Virus record (IMG/VR): IMGVR_UViG_2531839178_000012
Location: 1-10,610 of that record
DNA length: 10,610 nucleotides
Strand: one strand, 5' to 3'
Origin: a virus
Lineage: Duplodnaviria; Heunggongvirae; Uroviricota; Caudoviricetes
Made by a program: the position numbers and the translations under genes. The notes under the pieces were generated by a model that saw only the letters and a program-made list of their open reading frames with translations, was not told the origin of the DNA and ran no database searches. How positions within the stretch are numbered: the stretch's first letter is position 1; each line of letters begins with the position of its first letter. This document shows, one piece after another, positions 2,136 through 10,610 of this stretch.

Positions 2136-2684
2136 TTATTTTAAAGAAAGTAATTGTTCCACAGTCATATTTTTAATTGCGCCCCGGTTAACAAGAGTCC
2201 ATCCCTGTTTTTCCAGATAAAACCGGAAAGTCTCCAGGGTACAGACCAGTGCGCCATCAGGAACGGTTTCGGTGAATTCGACATTGCCGAATTTGTCGAA
2301 GTGAACAACCAGAGTGCGACCATCACCCGGAATCATCTTGTCAGCAGGTGGGGTGTTATTCTGGCGCAGTTCGGCCTCCATGCGGTCGAACTCAGCAATG
2401 TAGGCTTCCTTGAATGCGGCGGCTTTTTTGCCAGTGAAGCCCATCACCAGGAAAACGAAGCCGTTTTTGGTGATTTGGTACATTGGGAGTTTGCGCCCGG
2501 TTGAGTCGGTGTATTCGCTCGCCTCAAAATTGAGGGCAGTAAATTTATCTGAGCATTCAATATTTGCGATGGCACGTAACACATTGTCGTGTCGTTTGTG
2601 GAAGAACTCTGCAACCGCAACAGACGTAGTGACAGCGCGACCGTTTTCTACGGTTACACAAGGGTGAGAAAGGGTAGTAGCCAT
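2136..2684 (-). CDS. Rha-family phage regulatory protein (Phage_pRha-type N-terminal domain), 182 aa
   Basis: Segment VAEFFHKRHDNVLRAIANIE ... MYQITKNGFVFLVMGFTGKKAAAFKEAYIAEFDRMEAELR matches Rha-family motifs I recall (KRHDNVLR, GF.LLVMG.TGKKA). ATG at 2684 has GGAGG 8 nt upstream and puts the Rha domain at the N-terminus, as is typical. The track ORF extends in frame to 2978 (280 aa); see findings. Confidence 0.8.
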   Translation of the reverse strand: MATTLSHPCVTVENGRAVTTSVAVAEFFHKRHDNVLRAIANIECSDKFTALNFEASEYTDSTGRKLPMYQITKNGFVFLVMGFTGKKAAAFKEAYIAEFDRMEAELRQNNTPPADKMIPGDGRTLVVHFDKFGNVEFTETVPDGALVCTLETFRFYLEKQGWTLVNRGAIKNMTVEQLLSLK

Positions 2685-2850
2685 GATGGCAGCCTCCGCG
2701 ATGAATTTGATTAACTCACCACCGGAGGTAGCAATCTCATGGGTGGTGAGACGTACAGGGTTGCTACAACCGGTCATCACGGAACCCGGCCAGTCTTGCG
2801 ACTGCCCCGCACGCCCCACCATAATTTGAATGTGGCTGTGCATTACGCAT

Positions 2851-2873
2851 AAAAAAACCGCCTGAGCGCGGTT
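2851..2873 (-). terminator. Possible intrinsic terminator, minus-strand orientation
   Basis: Stem aaccgc/gcggtt with 6-nt loop (2856-2873); on the minus strand it is followed by T7 (complement of the A-run 2851-2857). Modest stem (4 GC pairs). It lies inside the optional N-terminal extension of the Rha ORF, so it conflicts with that longer gene model. Confidence 0.3.
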
Positions 2874-3379
2874 ATGCGCCGTGAATGACTTCGGGGTAGC
2901 AATCCCGGCACCCGTTTTATGAGGTGCAGGTGCACTATAATTCCACCCGTTCTGGTTTTCAATAGCTACATTCAACATTTTCTCTTTCCTTTCATCACCG
3001 AAGTGAACTTTGTTGATGCGGTGCCTGGTGCCTCCAGGTGACGTTAACCAGTTAATAATTAACGCCGGAATAAGGGATTTTCCTTACTGTTTTAACTGTT
3101 CCGCGTGCGCTGAGCCGCATTCACCGCATCACAAAATTCACTTTAAAAAGGGCGGACATCAGCCAGCAATTAAACCGATGCCGCCAACTGGTACTTCACA
3201 CAGCAATGTCGTTATTTACAACCGGAGGCGCACTCCCACCATTTAAATTTAACAGACAAGACCGACTCTTTATGGATACCGGAAATGCGCCTTCGTGTTG
3301 TGCCCGGTTTTATTTCACCACCTCCGGGCTTTGGTGGTATCTTTACTGAAGTTCTCGCACAACCAGTAAGGAAATGAAT

Positions 3380-3463
3380 ATGCCAACGTATCTCGCCAGA
3401 GTAGAACTATATAATGCTGAGCCAGAGGATTACGAAGGGCTTCATAAATATATGCTCTCACTA
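3380..3463 (+). pseudogene. 5' fragment of a small gene interrupted by IS630 (reconstituted ORF 78 aa)
   Basis: ATG at 3380 with AAGGA 8 nt upstream; the reading frame runs to the IS630 junction at 3463/3464 and continues in frame at 4619 after the IS (stop TGA 4769-4771). With the IS present the ORF stops at 3476-3478 inside the IS terminus. Confidence 0.55.
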
Positions 3464-4616
3464 AATAGCTGCGCTTAATACCGCTACACTTTTGCCAGTC
3501 CATGTTTGCCTCCGGGGAATGGGCTGACGGTTTCCATAAAATGGCGAACTTTTTTCAACAGTTGCCACATTGAGCGGCACTGATGATTACGCGTTATTGT
3601 GTCGTGAAGTGCCTGCCATAGCCGTTCAACATGATTCACCCATGGCGAGTAAACCGGCTGATAAATGCCCCTGAACTTCGGGTTCTCCTTCAGCCAGCTC
3701 TGTGTTTCCCGGCTTTTGTGGATAATGTAGTTGTCCACGATCAGCGTGATGGTTTTCGCCCGACGGTATGTCGCTTTAAGCCGCTTCAGCAGGCTGATGA
3801 ACAGCGCCGAACTTTTGCTGTTGCCGCCCACATAGCTGACTTTACCTGTCCCGCTGTGCAGCGCTCCGGCCAGATAATATTTTTCATTCTGTCCCGGCGT
3901 GACCACCCGTTTTTGCTGTCCGCGCAGTTGCCAGTCCGCACCGATTTTGGGATGAAGATGGATATCCACTTCATCTTCATAAAAGACCGGATGCTCTGCG
4001 CTGCATTCGTCCAGTGCTTTATGGATTGCTGCCATCTTTTCATCTTTATGCGGGTCACGGATACGCAGAGTTGGCGCAGCCCTTCGCCACACAATCCCCG
4101 CAGACGGCAACCAGCGGCGAACGGTTCCGGCATTTAACTGGCAACCGGTTATCTCATTGATTTTTATTGCCAGCAGTTCTGTACTCCAGCGTGAACGCTG
4201 GTAGCCAAAGTCGCCGGGAGAATGTTTTACCAGCTCACGTAACAGTGTGCAGATATGCTCAAACGGCCAGCGACGGGCACGCCCGGCAGGTAATGATTTC
4301 AGTCCCTCAACACCCGACTGCGTGAACCAGTTAATCCAGCGTCCAACAGAGGAACGGGCGCAGCAGAGCGTTCTGGCAACGTCGCTGACACGGTCGCCCC
4401 GGTGCAGCATCAGCATGGCAGTCAGTCTGCGGGCATAATTTTTATCGTGTGTTTTATGGATGGCTTTCTGCATCAGGCGTCGTTCGTCACGGGAAATTGG
4501 TGCTATGATCGGCATTGCTCAGTCCGGTTGGTGATTTGTTTTGATTTGGCGATTGTTCAGATCGCACAATCCGGGCTAAGTTCCCTCAAAGTGATCTACT
4601 ATTCCGCGCAGCTATT
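3464..4616 (-). mobile_element. IS630 (Tc1/mariner-related IS630 family), complete copy, 1153 bp
   Basis: Terminal inverted repeats AAATAGCTGCGC (3464-3475) and GCGCAGCTATTT (4605-4616). Flanked by TA (3462-3463) and TA (4617-4618) inside a C-TA...TA-G context, i.e. insertion into CTAG with TA duplication. Length 1153 bp agrees with IS630 as I recall it. Contains one 343-aa transposase ORF. Confidence 0.9.
3484..4515 (-). CDS. IS630 transposase, 343 aa
   Basis: Single long ORF filling the element. Sequence (MPIIAPISRDERRLMQKAIHKTHDKNYARRL ... DNYIIHKSRE ...) matches my recollection of the IS630 transposase, with an N-terminal HTH-like region and a C-terminal DDE-type region. Confidence 0.9.
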   Translation of the reverse strand: MPIIAPISRDERRLMQKAIHKTHDKNYARRLTAMLMLHRGDRVSDVARTLCCARSSVGRWINWFTQSGVEGLKSLPAGRARRWPFEHICTLLRELVKHSPGDFGYQRSRWSTELLAIKINEITGCQLNAGTVRRWLPSAGIVWRRAAPTLRIRDPHKDEKMAAIHKALDECSAEHPVFYEDEVDIHLHPKIGADWQLRGQQKRVVTPGQNEKYYLAGALHSGTGKVSYVGGNSKSSALFISLLKRLKATYRRAKTITLIVDNYIIHKSRETQSWLKENPKFRGIYQPVYSPWVNHVERLWQALHDTITRNHQCRSMWQLLKKVRHFMETVSPFPGGKHGLAKV

Positions 4617-4618
4617 TA

Positions 4619-4771
4619 GCATCCAGTAATCAGGTTAGCGAATTAACAATGTGGGTTAAACGACTGGTCAGTCAACTGAAAAAAGCTAAGCCTGACTGCA
4701 AATTACCGGAGAAGGCGATGGATTACCTGAAGCGAAATGGACTGATAAGCGTGGAGGATGTTTTACGATGA
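4619..4771 (+). pseudogene. 3' fragment of the IS630-interrupted small gene
   Basis: In frame with 3380..3463 once IS630 and one TA copy are removed. Encodes ...ASSNQVSELTMWVKRLVSQLKKAKPDCKLPEKAMDYLKRNGLISVEDVLR. Stop TGA 4769-4771 overlaps the ATG of the next ORF. Confidence 0.5.
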
Positions 4772-5167: not shown

Positions 5168-5218
5168 GTTAAATCCTTCGTTGTTGGGGAATATTGTTAG
5201 TTTAGCCTGTAGTGGCTG

Positions 5219-5248
5219 TTGACGACAACGTTAATCCGGGGCTATATT
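5219..5248 (+). promoter_or_regulatory. Sigma70-type promoter, copy 1 of a duplicated late-promoter-like module
   Basis: -35 TTGACG (5219-5224), 18-bp spacer, -10 TATATT (5243-5248). Homologous to the promoter at 9400-9429 that directly follows the Q-like gene. Confidence 0.5.
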
Positions 5249-5293
5249 CCTCACGCGCCAGCAAAATCTGGCGTCGGGATTGGCGTCCCGGAT
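5234..5293 (+). repeat. 60-bp exact direct repeat, copy 1 (promoter -10 plus initial transcribed region)
   Basis: atccggggctatattcctcacgcgccagcaaaatctggcgtcgggattggcgtcccggat is identical at 5234-5293 and 9415-9474. Flanks are related upstream (CTGTTGAC[G/T]) and diverge downstream. Confidence 0.9.
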
Positions 5294-5331
5294 GTTTACG
5301 GAGCGATATGAGACGCGTCCGCGTCTTTTTT
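5255..5331 (+). ncRNA. Predicted short terminated transcript (about 77 nt), analogous to a lambdoid 6S/pR' leader RNA
   Basis: Predicted start about 7 nt after the -10; two hairpins (cgccag/ctggcg and cggga/tcccg), then an intrinsic terminator at 5311-5331. Existence of the transcript is inferred, not observed. Confidence 0.35.
5311..5331 (+). terminator. Intrinsic terminator (tR'-like)
   Basis: Stem agacgc (5311-5316) / gcgtct (5321-5326), loop gtcc, then T-run to 5331. Confidence 0.5.
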
Positions 5332-5494
5332 CATATCGTTTGCACAGTCACATTCGCGATTTATGGCGGGCTGTGTGGGGGAGCCGAAAGGCTCGCCGGT
5401 TTCCGTACCCGGTTACGCCAACCCTGCACAGTTCGCCACCAGTTCGATTGGCGTCGTCGGTGGCGATAATTTCCAAATGTACGGAGTTATCGTT

Positions 5495-6043
5495 ATGACC
5501 ACTCAAATCTCTGTTGAAACTCTCTCCCCGATCGCCCATAACCAGATACCTGTTATTACCACTGAACTTTTGGCGCAGTTGTACGGCACAGAAGCGATTC
5601 GCATTCAGCAAAATCACGCCAGAAACGCTGAACGTTTTATTGAAGGTAAGCATTTTTATAAGTTAGTGGGCGATGAGCTTAGAGGTATGAAGCACAGACT
5701 ATCTTTAAGCGAGTCTGTGAAAATTGCCCGTAACGTTCGCTCCCTCATTCTCTGGACAGAACGCGGAGCAGCACGTCACGCCAAAATGCTCGAAACCGAT
5801 CAGGCGTGGGAAGTATTCGAAAAATTGGAAGACTGCTACTTCAACCAGTACGAGAAAGATCGGGCTACGGGGAAAATGAACATCGATATTCACCTGGCGA
5901 TCCGTGATGATAAAACTGCCTTCATCCGAAGTTATGCGCCTGGTCAGCTGGTGACGGTTGAAGAAGCCCTGATGTTGCTTAAATCGCGCGGATGGCTGGT
6001 AATGCCGCGAGATGAATTTGCCGGAAAATTAATGGAGCTTTAA
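5495..6043 (+). CDS. ORF6N-domain (KilA-N-like) phage protein, 182 aa
   Basis: ATG at 5495 with GGAG upstream, in frame with the longer track ORF. Motifs LAQLYGTEAIRIQQNHARNAERFIEGKHFYKL ... LILWTERGAARHAKMLETDQAWEVFEKL fit the ORF6N family pattern as I recall it (L..LY...RN.ERF, LWTE.G). Confidence 0.8.
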   Translation: MTTQISVETLSPIAHNQIPVITTELLAQLYGTEAIRIQQNHARNAERFIEGKHFYKLVGDELRGMKHRLSLSESVKIARNVRSLILWTERGAARHAKMLETDQAWEVFEKLEDCYFNQYEKDRATGKMNIDIHLAIRDDKTAFIRSYAPGQLVTVEEALMLLKSRGWLVMPRDEFAGKLMEL

Positions 6044-6057
6044 CTGGTTAAATTAGC

Positions 6058-6083
6058 CCCGATATGGGAATTCCCATATCGGG
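6058..6083. repeat. 26-bp perfect palindrome (cccgatatgggaa|ttcccatatcggg) centred on GAATTC
   Basis: Perfectly self-complementary, 15 nt after the ORF6N stop codon; no U-tract follows it. Confidence 0.85.
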
Positions 6084-6110
6084 AGAACATTACCACCGGG
6101 GATAAAATGA

Positions 6111-6139: not shown

Positions 6140-6204
6140 TGCTGCGGGTGCTTGAGGCTATCTGTCTCAGGCATGAACACCAAAAGGCAGATGAGAAGCC
6201 CCAG

Positions 6205-6265
6205 TTAACATTACGCGTCCTGCAAGACGCTTAACATTAATCTGAGGCCAATTTCATGCTAGACA
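6205..6265 (-). ncRNA. sok: Sok-like antisense RNA (antitoxin of the hok locus), predicted
   Basis: Minus-strand promoter -35 TTGCCT (6299..6294), 17-bp spacer, -10 TAACCT (6276..6271), mirroring the R1 sok promoter layout. The transcript would overlap the mok start codon and ribosome-binding region; hairpin 6214-6231 followed by UAAUGUUAA. Confidence 0.4.
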
Positions 6266-6468
6266 CATGTAGGTTAGCCTCTTACGTGCCGGAAGGCAAG
6301 GAGAAGCAGGCTATGAAGCAGCAAAAGGCGATGTTAGTCGCCCTGATCGTCATCTGTTTAACCGTCATAGTGACGGCACTGGTAACGAGGAAAGACCTCT
6401 GTGAGGTACGAATCCGAACCGGCCAGACGGAGGTCGCTGTCTTCGTAGACTACGAATCCAGGAAGTAA
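6256..6468 (+). CDS. mok: Mok-like reading frame (in-frame N-terminal extension sharing the hok stop), 70 aa
   Basis: ATG at 6256, in frame with and ending at the hok stop, as in chromosomal mokC/hokC. The start region is the predicted Sok target. Confidence 0.55.
   Translation: MLDTCRLASYVPEGKEKQAMKQQKAMLVALIVICLTVIVTALVTRKDLCEVRIRTGQTEVAVFVDYESRK
6313..6468 (+). CDS. hok: Hok/Gef-family type I toxin, 51 aa
   Basis: MKQQKAMLVALIVICLTVIVTALVTRKDLCEVRIRTGQTEVAVFVDYESRK is near-identical over the first 44 residues to E. coli HokD/RelF and HokC/Gef as I recall them. Confidence 0.85.
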   Translation: MKQQKAMLVALIVICLTVIVTALVTRKDLCEVRIRTGQTEVAVFVDYESRK

Positions 6469-7643: not shown

Positions 7644-7933
7644 TGGTGGATTTACGTAAAGCGGCGCGGGGGCAGATGTGCACCGTCAGAATTCCTGGCT
7701 ACTGCAATCACGATCCGGAAACGTCTGTGCTGGCGCATTACCGACTGGCGGGAACGTGCGGAACAGCGACAAAACCACACGATATGCAGGCGGCGATTGC
7801 CTGTAGCTCATGCCACGATTTAATCGACGGGCGGGTAAAAACAAGCGATTACACCAAAGAAGAATTACGCCTGATGCATGCAGAAGGTGTTTTTCGCACG
7901 CAAGAAATCTGGAGAAAGGAAGGTTATTTATGA
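7643..7933 (+). CDS. DUF1364-family protein (YbcO-like), 96 aa
   Basis: TAATG start overlap with the previous gene. Motifs DLRKAARG.MC.VRIPG.CN..PETSVLAH.RL ... IACSSCHD match YbcO of prophage DLP12 as I recall it. Confidence 0.8.
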   Translation: MVDLRKAARGQMCTVRIPGYCNHDPETSVLAHYRLAGTCGTATKPHDMQAAIACSSCHDLIDGRVKTSDYTKEELRLMHAEGVFRTQEIWRKEGYL

Positions 7934-8254
7934 TTTACCCAACAAATACAGGCAAAAGCGGGGAACACCTTCGTCTCACCACGCTGGAAAGTGTCTGGAT
8001 TCAGGGAAAACTGCGCATGTGGGGGCGCTGGTCGTATATTGGCGGCGGTAAGACGGGGAATATGTTCAACCAGTTGTTGGCCTCTAAAAAGCTGACAAAA
8101 ACGGCAATTAACGAGGCGCTCCGGAGGATGAAAAAAGCAGGTCTGGACAAACCTGAACTTGAGGCTTTTTTGCGGGATATGATCAACGGCAAGCAAAAAA
8201 GCTGGCTGGTGCATTGTACTGATGCAGAGGCGTTATGCATTGATCGGGTGATTA
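7930..8254 (+). pseudogene. Q-like late antiterminator, 5' part, interrupted by an IS5-family element
   Basis: ATGA start overlap with the DUF1364 gene. The frame runs to the IS junction at 8254/8255 and, after removing the IS and one TA, continues in frame at 9174 to the stop at 9401-9403 (about 184 aa). A WG.W motif near the N-terminus and the position after a ybcO-like gene and before a promoter module suggest a Q-type antiterminator; family assignment is tentative. Confidence 0.55.
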
Positions 8255-8265
8255 GGCTGTGTCCC

Positions 8266-8571
8266 TTAATTACGTAAGCGTTGATAAAAGAGTCGGATGC
8301 AGCCCAGTTTCACCATCGCCAGGTAATTTCTCGCCGTTTTGTCGTAACGCGTGGCGATGCGGCGATATTCTTTCAGCCGCCCAAAGCACCGTTCAACGAC
8401 ATTACGATTGCAGTACGCATCACGATCAAGCTGTGCACGTCCATCCGATGCCATTTTCTCATTTGACTTTCGGGGGATTACTGCCTTTATACCGTTATTT
8501 TTCAGCTCGTTGCGCAATGCGCGCCCTGAATACGCTTTATCAGCCAGTACCGCATGTCCACGGCGTTTCAT
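8266..8571 (-). CDS. IS5-family transposase, C-terminal ORF (OrfB)
   Basis: C-terminal motif VVERCFGRLKEYRRIATRYDKTARNYLAMVKLGCIRL resembles the IS5-family signature. The frame is open upstream to about 8646 and overlaps the OrfA frame region, suggesting frameshift expression or a degenerate copy. Confidence 0.6.
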   Translation of the reverse strand: MKRRGHAVLADKAYSGRALRNELKNNGIKAVIPRKSNEKMASDGRAQLDRDAYCNRNVVERCFGRLKEYRRIATRYDKTARNYLAMVKLGCIRLFYQRLRN

Positions 8572-8661
8572 GCTGCCGTTCTGACGCTGAACGCCAATCC
8601 CGTCCAGAAGTCGTTGCGCGAACTGGCTTTCATGAGCTTGTCCGGGGGCTTAGCACGATAT

Positions 8662-9111
8662 TTATCGGGAGGCCACTTCCGTCTGTTGCCAGATGGATTT
8701 TGGTGCCAAAACCGCCGCGAGAGCGACCCAGCCCATTATCTCCGTCGATATCGGGATGTTTTTTTGAGCACCGGCGGCACATTTCAGCGCCCGGATATTA
8801 CTGCCATCCAGCGCGGTGGCAGACCAGTCAATAAAGCCGTTTGCATCAAGTAGCGAAAGCAACCTGTTGAAAATAATATTAATCACGCCTGACTTAGACC
8901 ATCGGTTAAAGCGGTTATAAACAGTTTTCCATGACCCATATCGTTCGGGTAAATCGCGCCATGGTGCACCGGAACATAACACCCAGAACATGCCATTGAT
9001 GATTTTACGGTGCTCAGCCCATGGGCGTCCGGCCCGTGGTGTGGCGGGTTCAGGAGGTAACAGGGGCTTGATGATGGTCCATGCCTCATCGGGAAGGTCG
9101 TAGCGAGCCAT
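8662..9111 (-). CDS. IS5-family transposase, N-terminal ORF (OrfA), 149 aa
   Basis: MARYDLPDEAWTIIKPLLPPE ... APWRDLPERYGSWKTVYNRFNRW is a typical IS5-family N-terminal motif set. Confidence 0.7.
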   Translation of the reverse strand: MARYDLPDEAWTIIKPLLPPEPATPRAGRPWAEHRKIINGMFWVLCSGAPWRDLPERYGSWKTVYNRFNRWSKSGVINIIFNRLLSLLDANGFIDWSATALDGSNIRALKCAAGAQKNIPISTEIMGWVALAAVLAPKSIWQQTEVASR

Positions 9112-9173
9112 AGTTCAATATGTTGTGTAAACAGACAGTTACTATAGCTCAGATGATTAAGGGACACAGCCTA

Positions 9174-9403
9174 GTGAAGTGCTGGCAGAACACCCAGGAT
9201 TGATTTGTATCCTCCGGCAACGATATGAAGGGAGGGGGATGACTAAGCGAAAAATGGCTGAATTGCTGAATGATTCACACCCTGAGTGGTGTTACGCCAC
9301 GTGCCGTAATCGCATAGATGCGTGGTTGAAAATGGCAGAGTTTATGCTCTATCTGCCGATGCGTGATGCATTCTCTTCCGGGGATTTAAAAACTGTCTGT
9401 TGA
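9174..9403 (+). pseudogene. Q-like antiterminator, 3' part, separated from the 5' part by the IS5-family insertion
   Basis: In frame with 7930..8254 across the reconstructed insertion site. The track's ORF 9179..9403 begins at a GTG read as M, so it is not an independent gene. Confidence 0.5.
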
Positions 9404-9429
9404 CTCAATCTGTTATCCGGGGCTATATT
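9400..9429 (+). promoter_or_regulatory. Late-promoter-like sigma70 promoter (pR'-like), copy 2, immediately after the Q-like gene
   Basis: -35 TTGACT (9400-9405, overlapping the Q stop codon), 18-bp spacer, -10 TATATT (9424-9429). Lambda pR' also has a TTGACT -35 as I recall it. The transcribed region is identical to copy 1 for 60 bp. Confidence 0.5.
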
Positions 9430-9474
9430 CCTCACGCGCCAGCAAAATCTGGCGTCGGGATTGGCGTCCCGGAT
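9415..9474 (+). repeat. 60-bp exact direct repeat, copy 2
   Basis: Identical to 5234-5293. Identity ends a few bp before the IS911-like element begins. Confidence 0.9.
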
Positions 9475-9481
9475 ATCGAAA

Positions 9482-10421
9482 TGAGGTGTACTGGCAATAG
9501 CGGACACTACCATTTGTCTTTTTTTAAGCAGCCATCTGATGATATTTTTCCCTGAAGGCTGCCGGGGAGATATTCCCCAGACGAGAGTGACGACGCTGAC
9601 GATTGTAGAAAATCTCAATGTATTCCCGTATTACTGAGATGGCTTCATCCCGGTTATTAAAACGATAGTGGCTCAGGCTCTCATTTTTCAGCGTTCCCCA
9701 GAAGCTTTCCATCGGAGCGTTGTCGTAACAGTTACCTTAACGGCGACATTGGATGTTTTCAGACCAAACTGCTCCTGTATGACCCGGTAATCGTATGCGC
9801 AGTACTGTGAACCTCGATCAGAGTGGTGGATTAGCCCGGCAGGTGGGCGCTGGCTCCTGAGCGCCATAAACAGGGCTTTACCTGTCAGCTCTTTTGTCAT
9901 GCGCTCTCCCATGGCGTAGCCGACAATTTTGCACGTATAAACATCTTTGATGCCAGCGAGGTACAACCATCCCTCCTGTGTGGCAACATACGTCAGGTCC
10001 GCCACCCAGACCTGATTTGGTGCTGTAGGAGCGAACGTCTGGTTCAACAGATTTGGCGCAACTGGCAGATTGTGGTTCGGGTTCGTAGTCGCTCTGAACT
10101 TGCGTTTCTGCTTACAGCGTAGCCTTAGCTCCTTACGAAGACGTGCCAGTCGGTCACGACCAACGATGATGCCATTCTCTGCCAGCTCCGTCTGGAGCCG
10201 CCGGGTTCCATATGTTTCGCGAGTGCGGATATGTGCCACCTTAATCTCCAGTTTTAGCCGCTCATCACTTTGTTTTCTGTCTGAGGGTTCATGCTGTACC
10301 CAGTTGTAATAACCGCTCCTGGATACACCAAATACCTGACACATCGCTTCAATGGGAAATTGTTGTCGCCATTGTTCGATTAACGCGTATTTTTCAGCGA
10401 CTCCTGTGCAAAATACGCTGT
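9482..10421 (-). mobile_element. IS3-family (IS911-like) element remnant, truncated at its orfA side by IS30
   Basis: Contains an IS911-type orfB on the minus strand and only the last codons of orfA. The terminus near 9482 starts TGAGGTG (IS3-family ends begin TG). The inner boundary is set by the IS30 end at 10422. The left boundary is approximate. Confidence 0.7.
9524..10344 (-). pseudogene. insO: IS911-type transposase OrfB (InsO-like), inactivated by indels
   Basis: ORF 10344..9688 (MCQVFGVSRSGYYNWVQHEPSDRKQ ... HSDRGSQYCAYDYRVIQEQFGLKTS) and ORF 9712..9524 (MESFWGTLKNESLSHYRFNNRDEAISVIREYIEIFYNRQRRHSRLGNISPAAFREKYHQMAA) are two halves of one IS3-family OrfB. Several small indels near 9700-9730 break the expected SRKGNCYDNAP segment. 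Confidence 0.8.
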
Positions 10422-10610
10422 TGTAGATTCAATCTGTCAATGCAACACCCCTTTCAATTATCTCTTTCGGTGTTTTGAACTTCAGTGTCTTTCTCGGTCT
10501 GTTGTTTAGCTGAGCAGCAACCAGATCTAGTTCATGTTGAGTATATTGGGCAAGACATGTCTTTTTAGGAAAGTACTGCCGAATTAGCCCATTTGTGTTC
10601 TCATTTGTTC
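10422..10610 (-). mobile_element. IS30, terminal 189 bp of a copy that continues beyond the right window edge
   Basis: The terminus TGTAGATTCAATCTGTCAATGCAACACC starting at 10422 matches the IS30 end as I recall it. The transposase C-terminus is encoded on the minus strand. Confidence 0.75.
10429..10610 (-). CDS. insI: IS30 transposase, C-terminal fragment (5' part of the gene is outside the window)
   Basis: Minus-strand translation ends ...FPKKTCLAQYTQHELDLVAAQLNNRPRKTLKFKTPKEIIERGVALTD, the characteristic IS30 transposase C-terminus (LNNRPRK..L.F.TP.E). Stop at 10431..10429. Confidence 0.75.
   Translation of the reverse strand, partial: TNENTNGLIRQYFPKKTCLAQYTQHELDLVAAQLNNRPRKTLKFKTPKEIIERGVALTD

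Follow-up and report, generated by a model that had tools for sequence, protein, structure and literature searches.

The window, by which is meant the whole 10,610-nt stretch of phage DNA analysed, contains a promoter, a 77-nt structured RNA and an intrinsic terminator on its plus strand, at 5219-5331. The terminator is followed by a C4-type RNA, an ORF6N-domain gene, hok/sok and nin-like genes, with no late (lysis or structural) genes among what lies 3' of it. The parts of this module and its cargo are the following.

5219..5248, plus strand: promoter of the IsrK module, TTGACG-18-TATATT (consensus scan, 10/12 matches)
5255..5331, plus strand: IsrK small RNA, 77 nt (Rfam RF01394)
5255-5274, plus strand: IsrK hairpin 1 (fold)
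5275-5290, plus strand: IsrK hairpin 2 (fold), which bears site b1
5280-5286, plus strand: site b1, UUGGCGU, in IsrK hairpin 2
5297-5303, plus strand: site a1, UACGGAG, in the IsrK linker
5310-5331, plus strand: IsrK terminator, a hairpin at 5310-5327 and then a T-run to 5331
5359..5443, plus strand: C4-type antisense RNA (Rfam RF01695, 77.6 bits against 45)
about 5400-5407, plus strand: C4 loop a', UUUCCGUA, exposed in the fold
5415-5421, plus strand: C4 single-stranded b', ACGCCAA, exposed in the fold
5446..5494, plus strand: leader of the antirepressor-like gene, with C4 target sites (site complementarity)
5446-5455 (7-nt core 5448-5454), plus strand: site b2, GAUUGGCGUC, in the ORF6N leader
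5479-5486, plus strand: site a2, (G)UACGGAG, containing the Shine-Dalgarno GGAG, 8 nt before the ATG
5495..6043, plus strand: ORF6N-domain antirepressor-like gene, the cargo of the module (Pfam PF10543, E = 2.3e-20)
6146-6318: sok (Rfam)

The whole window was scanned against Rfam at curated thresholds. The isrK model, RF01394, matches 5255-5331 with 75.1 bits (gathering score 50) over model positions 1-77 of 77, and the c4-a1b1 model, RF03163, covers 5242-5294 with 52.2 bits against a threshold of 46.7. Transcription from the promoter is predicted to start at about 5255. The predicted transcript has its own sigma-70 promoter and Rho-independent terminator, as the IsrK family requires; promoter, structured RNA and terminator (5219-5248 and 5255-5331) had already been noticed in a sequence-only reading of this DNA.

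Consensus scans of the window find 3 promoter-like sites where 5.2 are expected and 7 terminator-like sites where 5.5 are expected, and the 77-nt IsrK folds modestly better than shuffled sequences (z = -1.84). Since the scans are at chance level and the fold is modest, the case for the module rests on homology and conservation. Its significance comes from the covariance-model match (E = 5e-15) and from conservation in relatives. For instance, the CCGGGGCTATATT core lies 5' of the isrK matches in seven plus-strand modules, that of SfV being a variant. The copy in the window, here called copy 1 (5219-6043), is complete and has the same neighbours in E. coli RMDEC465, where the gene order is also divergent small gene, module, ORF6N, hok, DUF1367, YbcO, DUF1133.

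The cargo gene runs from an ATG at 5495 to a stop at 6043. Its place 3' of the terminator agrees with the earlier prediction that terminator read-through feeds a downstream gene. The protein is best called antirepressor-like, a label taken from annotation and context: in Stx phages, homologous modules carry a cargo gene annotated as antirepressor Ant. It has no homology to P1 Ant as far as compared, and NCBIfam has no name for it or for the Q-like protein described below.

Two further modules and the state of the prophage

A third module, also complete, lies on the minus strand and is absent from the sequence-only reading.

2684..2962, minus strand: third complete module, of other specificity (Rfam isrK 64.8 bits, C4 79 bits)
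2962-2934, minus strand: copy 3 promoter, TTGAAA-17-TATAGT, which differs from the core of the plus-strand modules
2927-2851, minus strand: copy 3 IsrK, b1 UUGCUAC
2826-2739, minus strand: copy 3 C4, b' GUAGCAA
2736-2727 (b2) and 2704-2694 (a2/Shine-Dalgarno), minus strand: copy 3 leader (site search)
2684-2136, minus strand: Rha-family gene, cargo of copy 3 (Pfam Phage_pRha, TIGR02681)

The design is the same as in copy 1, and the pair of a sites is UCAUCGCGGAG/UUCCGUGAUGA. Going by Pfam and TIGRFAM family names, the cargo would belong to a family commonly annotated as antirepressor or regulator. Relatives of copy 3 are found in an early-left operon with YdaE and DicB.

The remaining module, copy 2, is a fragment, and is surrounded by the traces of insertion sequences.

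3461-4619: IS630 (sequence repeats and ORFs)
7930..9403, plus strand: Q-like antiterminator gene (DUF1133), in two parts, 7930-8252 and 9174-9403 (Pfam PF06576 matches both halves)
8253-9173: ISSfl7-like IS5-family element, with inverted repeats 8253-8279 and 9147-9173
9400..9481, plus strand: second, truncated IsrK module, directly 3' of the Q-like gene (Rfam, repeat, scan)
9400-9429, plus strand: copy 2 promoter, TTGACT-18-TATATT (consensus scan)
9436-9481, plus strand: first 46 nt of copy 2 IsrK, with hairpins 1 and 2 and b1 as in copy 1
9482..10610, off the window end, minus strand: IS600 (IS3 family), its transposase on this strand up to the window end, 99% identity to annotated IS600 from query position 103 on

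Copies 1 and 2 form a repeat. Positions 5213-5293 and 9394-9474 are 90% identical over 81 nt, and the longest exact run is 60 nt (5234-5293 = 9415-9474). An exact repeat of this length cannot be chance in 10.6 kb, and the earlier report of 100% identity over 60 bp with the region after the Q-like gene is correct. A whole module after Q, as had also been reported, is not there: copy 2 diverges from copy 1 at 9475 and is interrupted at 9482, where it meets the end of IS600, and therefore has no terminator of its own. It also lacks a1, C4 and an antirepressor gene. An isrK match at 9436-9524 reaches 55.2 bits only by borrowing a T-run in the IS600 end, and no C4 lies behind it. Thus the description of copy 1 as "ectopic" has to be reversed. 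Copy 1 is intact and is placed as in RMDEC465, and the copy after Q is the truncated one. What remains behind the Q-like gene, the 60-nt repeat, is the stump of a second cassette that shared the specificity of copy 1 and was later cut by IS600.

Two other origins of the 60-nt core were considered and rejected. It is not a tRNA fragment, as no tRNA is found by ARAGORN, and it is not an IS terminus, as IS600 begins only at 9482, past the core.

With three insertion sequences in 10.6 kb (IS630, the IS5-family element and IS600), the locus resembles a Shigella-type prophage in decay. Loci that are related but not identical occur in Shigella flexneri SFBU1023 and E. coli ECMA0423, and the exact IsrK/IS600 junction has no match in the species-representative genomes.

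Pairing sites and their covariation

The minimum free energy fold of C4 shows an outer stem that encloses two hairpins, as expected for this RNA. Two short sequences link this RNA to its surroundings. The 10-mer GATTGGCGTC is found at three places in the window: in IsrK hairpin 2 (5278-5287), in the leader (5446-5455) and in copy 2 (9459-9468). TACGGAG is found only twice, in the IsrK linker (5297-5303) and at the Shine-Dalgarno sequence (5480-5486). The complements of both sit in unpaired parts of C4. Sites b1 and a1 are exact copies of b2 and a2, so that IsrK bears copies of the C4 sites covering the ribosome-binding site of the antirepressor-like gene. In the 246-nt read-through RNA, a local hairpin is predicted to sequester the Shine-Dalgarno sequence and AUG of the ORF6N gene (z = -5.0).

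Evidence for the pairing can be provided by comparing modules. The set used for covariation consists of eight modules: two from the window and one each from E. coli CFS3292, RMDEC465, an Stx2 prophage, VT2-Sakai, SfV and a Salmonella prophage. All 7 pairs of the b1-b' helix are formed in each of the eight modules (100%). Five of these pairs have changes on both sides, which none of 500 shuffles matches. When the partner is shifted by 1-3 columns as a control, pairing falls to 23-59%. Four b specificities are seen: UUGGCGU/ACGCCAA, UUGCUAC/GUAGCAA, UUGGUCU/AGACCAA and UUAGCAC/GUGCUAA. The a sites likewise co-vary between modules across IsrK, C4 and leader.

An example for such a change of specificity is the relationship between the window and RMDEC465. 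The latter has the promoter of the window and a nearly identical IsrK and C4, and the difference is mainly a coordinated swap to UUAGCAC/GUGCUAA, together with a few scattered substitutions. These RNAs are members of one family with a common anatomy and complementary sites, and they vary between modules in a compensatory manner.

The location of the sites at the start of the gene is also shared. Complementarity of a' and b' to a2 and b2 at the ribosome-binding site recurs in module 3. Site a2 lies on the Shine-Dalgarno sequence in SfV and in the Salmonella locus L013 as well, with one mismatch in the b2 of SfV; in the modules of Sp5 and locus L008, it lies just upstream of the Shine-Dalgarno sequence and not on it.

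Cognate and non-cognate IsrK/C4 pairs are not told apart by whole-molecule energies from RNAduplex, since some pairing is always available to long G+C-rich RNAs. For this reason the exposed sites and covariation were used instead, and it is from the exposed sites only that the specificity argument is drawn.

Neither an Icd homologue nor a separate orf45 frame is found in the copy 1 cassette. The frame that begins with the AUG at 5363, within C4, continues into ORF6N with no intervening stop codon. Thus, translational coupling of the Gifsy-1 type cannot be assumed.

Proposed regulation and rival explanations

The element at 5219-5331 very probably provides the promoter and the leader, the small RNA IsrK, for an antirepressor cassette under antisense-RNA control. 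Cassettes of this kind were first described in P1 and P7 (immI, c4-icd-ant) and in the Salmonella prophage Gifsy-1 (isrK-orf45/STnc1160-anrP). The direction of regulation, the processing of C4 and the antirepressor activity are taken by analogy from the published Gifsy-1 and P1 work. In this model, the promoter fires and most transcripts would end at the terminator (5310-5331), forming the 77-nt IsrK. A fraction would read through into the C4-type RNA (5359-5443) and the ORF6N antirepressor-like gene (5495-6043). Next, a' (UUUCCGUA) and b' (ACGCCAA) of C4 would pair with the leader sites a2 and b2. Since a2 covers the Shine-Dalgarno sequence, the long transcript is proposed to stay untranslated. 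IsrK, with its b1 and a1, would pair with the C4 region and relieve the antirepressor, as it does in trans in Gifsy-1. The antirepressor would then inactivate the prophage repressor.

An alternative that is unlikely, but still to be reckoned with, is that the module is an intact-looking relic, conserved by descent and without a current role, the repeat marking a rearrangement by insertion sequences or a mosaic recombination. The density of insertion sequences fits this alternative, as do the split Q, the truncated module after it, and the absence from the window of lysis genes and of a late-promoter module (see below). The edges of the repeat are sharp (5233/5234 and 5293/5294), and in this respect the earlier suggestion of mosaic junctions has held up. 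In a prophage so riddled with insertion sequences, the switch may have nothing left to induce. However, copies 1 and 3 keep their promoter, terminator, C4 fold, both target sites and complete downstream frames. Moreover, antirepressors can act on the repressors of other prophages in the same cell, an action that is established for the Gifsy phages and is referred to in PMC4825925.

Another alternative, which is improbable, needs no dedicated qut site. An abundant Q of the AntQ type would suppress termination generally, including at the IsrK terminator, and a loose positive loop would lead from IsrK to the antirepressor, to Q and to more read-through. AntQ of Gifsy-1 interferes with termination genome-wide, and the expression of a PisrK-isrK-orf45-anrP transcriptional fusion increases 8-fold when IsrK is provided in trans (PMC4825925). 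This rise can be explained equally by IsrK binding the C4-like RNA or by an mRNA stabilised through translation, and AntQ was not assayed at the IsrK terminator in that work. In the window, furthermore, Q is split by the IS5-family element (8253-9173), so that the loop cannot run from this copy of Q; the same holds for the Q-dependent positive feedback of the sequence-only reading, which is moot here.

Copy 2 may have a further effect. Because it has lost its terminator, C4 and cargo and has kept hairpins 1 and 2 with b1, an unregulated hybrid RNA is possible. It is quite doubtful that such an IsrK-IS600 RNA titrates the C4 of copy 1 and holds the antirepressor partly on; if true, this would be a rewiring of a prophage immunity switch created by an insertion sequence. 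Less likely again is that the DUF1133 Q also acts at IsrK promoters that abut its gene.

The remaining alternative is the original one, in which the module is the pR'/qut/tR' region of the DUF1133 Q, the copy at 5219 is ectopic, and ORF6N, hok, the nin-like genes and Q are under Q-dependent read-through. The label "Q-like" itself is justified. Relatives of the DUF1133 protein are annotated antitermination protein Q in phage records, and a profile of 20 DUF1133 proteins matches Q21 (PDB 6p18) over most of the chain with E = 1.4e-07 (E = 0.005 for the single sequence), which makes DUF1133 a distant relative of Q21.

Such Q genes have a late module of their own. A conserved promoter-terminator module of another sequence lies directly 3' of a DUF1133-type Q in more than 20 enterobacterial loci. 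It consists of TTGAYT/TTGACW, a spacer with TTACNNANAAA, about 75 transcribed nucleotides and then a terminator, and its hosts include Escherichia, Citrobacter, Klebsiella, Enterobacter, Buttiauxella, Providencia and Edwardsiella. With an nhmmer profile, the module is found in 28 loci; in about 22 loci, from many enterobacterial species, it starts within about 50 nt of the Q gene. No isrK is present at the Q-adjacent module in phages of E. coli, Klebsiella, Providencia and Edwardsiella. RMDEC465 also carries this module; in the window, two pattern searches and the nhmmer profile give no match. Gifsy-1 is not among the matches listed in the phage collection, which come from 10 of 112 records. 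The module might correspond to the sRNA IsrJ, which follows anrP in Gifsy-1; at a permissive Rfam E-value, no isrJ is found in L001 9780-10020 (E. coli) or L013 3000-4100 (Salmonella).

The position of IsrK next to Q has a different explanation. The IsrK promoter does overlap the stop codon of the Q-like gene in the window, in E. coli CFS3292, in Shigella flexneri and in Salmonella. Where IsrK abuts Q in this way, the module associated with DUF1133 is retained at a distance of about 830 nt, with the IsrK-C4-antirepressor cassette on its 5' side and the lysis genes on its 3' side.

L001 9831-9959: DUF1133-associated module in E. coli CFS3292 (nhmmer)
L013 3880-3992: DUF1133-associated module in Salmonella (nhmmer)

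The cassette is thus an insertion between Q and that module. The second cassette of the window was likewise placed between Q and the late promoter belonging to it, an arrangement also found in Gifsy-1 and E. coli CFS3292. Within the window, only the truncated 9400-9481 abuts Q, and the element for which qut identity was proposed lies 2.6 kb upstream of it.

The distribution of the modules points the same way. By a sensitive DNA search, 2751 of 5426 complete E. coli genomes carry the module, at up to six places per genome. It had been proposed to see whether the core invariably comes after a Q gene; it does not, as only 3 of 60 evenly spaced E. coli matches touch a DUF1133 gene. In phages with other types of Q, IsrK modules adjoin nin60/NinE, cro or early-left genes. 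For instance, VT2-Sakai has IsrK and C4 between nin60 and ant, and its Q gene, with the region that follows it, about 2.5 kb beyond them; in SfV the pair is beside cro in the immunity region, and in an Stx2 prophage that has another type of antiterminator it is upstream of ORF6N-hokD.

The -10-like CAAAAT, earlier proposed as a pause element, is present at +9 to +14. It forms the loop of hairpin 1, which in other modules reads CAUAAAAC, CCAAAUC or UAUAAAGC; the key A2 or T6 position is lost there, and with it the -10-like hexamer.

Thus, although the RNA is short and terminated like those of pR' promoters, and Sy et al. 2020 describe IsrK as made from an antitermination-regulated promoter (PMC7547250), the Q-utilisation alternative can hardly be right, given the separate late module, the other neighbours and Q types, the unconserved loop, the disrupted Q, and a C4 and antirepressor-type gene after the terminator in place of late genes. 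Of the earlier interpretation, the terminated regulatory RNA stands and the late promoter does not; by Rfam and covariation, the element is the IsrK/c4-a1b1 leader of a C4-controlled antirepressor cassette.

Significance and relation to known systems

The element in the window is of a kind already known and very common, a copy of the P1 immI / Gifsy-1 IsrK system. Its weight as a discovery is slight, since IsrK, c4-a1b1 and C4 are curated in Rfam, and Gifsy-1 and P1 have been dissected experimentally. It matters in three other respects. First, of the roughly 2750 complete E. coli genomes with these RNA genes, most have no annotation for them, as was anticipated when the element was said to escape gene finders. 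The IsrK/C4 region is often called "ash family protein" instead. Second, IsrK is not the short transcript of a Q-dependent late promoter, though it has been so described; the IsrK-C4-ant cassette is a separate unit, which sometimes stands between a Q21-like DUF1133 gene and its promoter-terminator module. Third, three modules of two specificities within 7 kb offer material for the study of possible antirepressor cross-talk between prophages.

The closest known system is that of Gifsy-1, with the locus order antQ - isrK - orf45/STnc1160 - anrP - isrJ (Hershko-Shalev et al. 2016, PMC4825925). Transcripts from its isrK promoter mostly end at the IsrK terminator, and some read into orf45, which is the stable RNA STnc1160, and anrP as an untranslated mRNA. 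When present in trans, IsrK base-pairs with orf45 in its 3' part, which turns on orf45 and, by coupling, the antirepressor AnrP; AnrP then increases antQ operon transcription and brings about prophage induction. The IsrK pairs G28-C162 and G31-C159 have been proven by compensatory mutation (PMC4825925). This G28/G31 pairing falls in the b1-b' helix of the window.

The window and Gifsy-1 share the same Rfam family at full length, a sigma-70 promoter, an intrinsic terminator with partial read-through (predicted for the window), and a C4-like RNA followed by an antirepressor-type gene. The C4 at 5359-5443 is the counterpart of STnc1160/orf45. The position in Gifsy-1, directly after a DUF1133 Q gene, is shared by the truncated copy at 9400-9481, whereas the intact copy of the window stands 5' of hok in the nin-like region, 2.6 kb upstream of Q. 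Moreover, the frame from ATG 5363 is fused to ORF6N, while Gifsy-1 has a separate 45-codon ORF. The specificity of the a site differs as well, GAAAAAGG in Salmonella L013 compared with UACGGAG in the window.

Another known system is immI of P1 and P7, in which, according to Citron and Schuster 1990 as cited in PMC8201110, C4 RNA controls ant via complementary sites. The window resembles it in the C4 fold (RF01695), in the upstream a1/b1 hairpins (RF03163), in having a putative antirepressor as cargo, and in two short complementary sites over the ribosome-binding site of the downstream gene. Modules of differing specificity also recall P1 and P7. The window differs in having no icd homologue and in its cargo, which is ORF6N or Rha and not P1 Ant1/2. 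Its terminator after a1/b1 is predicted to free a separate small RNA, and the module is located on a chromosomal lambdoid prophage, not on a plasmid prophage.

The immunity system of P4 (CI RNA; seqA, seqB and seqC) may be regarded as analogous, in that a processed antisense RNA pairs with repeated flanking sites in one transcript. The authors of the IsrK work consider P4 SeqA a structural homologue of IsrK. P4 differs in that it acts by premature transcription termination of replication genes, and no antirepressor is involved.

Finally, lambda 6S RNA and StxS of Sp5 (PMC7547250) share with the module a constitutive promoter, a short terminated RNA and downstream genes that are reached on read-through only. 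They differ in having a Q-binding element and a sigma-dependent pause, and in standing before lysis or late genes. In the window, C4 and an antirepressor-type gene lie downstream, and the module that belongs to the local Q family is a different sequence. Both kinds of element can be found apart in a single phage, Stx phage Sp5, where isrK occupies L036 7025-7101 and is followed, after about 2.5 kb, by Q and its pR' region.

The minus-strand module and its cargo gene

A third complete module of the small RNA IsrK and the antisense RNA C4 lies on the minus strand, next to a gene of the Rha family.

2684-2962, minus strand: IsrK + C4 module, including a promoter of its own (TTGAAA-17-TATAGT)
2136-2684, minus strand: Rha-family cargo gene of this module

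The pairing specificity of this module (UUGCUAC/GUAGCAA) differs from that of copy 1, the intact module upstream of the ORF6N gene. The Rha-family gene is predicted to be the gene under its control. In relatives, the counterpart of the module is found within the early-left operon, together with YdaE and DicB.

The module also coincides with a match to the Pfam “Ash protein family” (PF10554). The match covers residues 14-104 of a long ORF, 2136..2978 (window 2667-2939, minus strand), and these residues are the translated IsrK + C4 RNA region. Likewise, an “ash family protein” has been annotated on top of IsrK + C4 RNA genes in many E. coli genomes. The family may be based on non-coding sequence.

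The module downstream of DUF1133 genes

A module consisting of a promoter, a 75-nt leader and a terminator is conserved directly 3' of DUF1133 (Q21-like) genes in many Enterobacterales. It occurs in the following loci and in about 22 more.

L001 (E. coli CFS3292), 9831-9959
L002, 4530-4660
L007 (E. coli RMDEC465), 9797-9925
L013 (Salmonella prophage), 3880-3992

In Pantoea (L019), an inserted hok/sok cassette separates the module from Q. The module has no Rfam family, and is likely the cognate late-promoter unit of the DUF1133 Q family. In the Salmonella prophage Gifsy-1, the sRNA IsrJ, a possible candidate for the Q-dependent short transcript, has been reported at the position equivalent to the L013 module (PMC4825925); the Rfam isrJ model had no match in L013 or L001.

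Three insertion sequences lie within the 10.6 kb of the window, a pattern typical of Shigella-type genomes.

3461-4619: IS630
8253-9173: ISSfl7-like element of the IS5 family, within the Q-like gene
9482-10610: IS600

At the left end, positions 1-1400 appear to lack any clear gene and to contain just short ORFs that overlap one another.

The ORF6N gene and its leader

A perfect palindrome, CCCGATATGGGAATTCCCATATCGGG, is located just 3' of the ORF6N stop codon (6059-6086), with no T-run after its end. A toxin-antitoxin locus follows, between ORF6N and the nin-like genes.

6146-6468: hok/sok, type I (the sok hit in Rfam scores 96 bits; Hok ORF end 6468)

In E. coli RMDEC465, an element that matches Rfam sRNA-Xcc1 (75 bits; L007 6819-6902) is inserted between C4 and ORF6N. 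No recognisable b2, one of the target sites of C4, is present in this leader.

In the window, an AUG inside C4 (5363) opens a stop-free frame that runs into ORF6N (5363-5494). This AUG is the counterpart of the first AUG of Gifsy-1 orf45, and its frame would give ORF6N 44 extra codons, as opposed to forming a separate coupled ORF.
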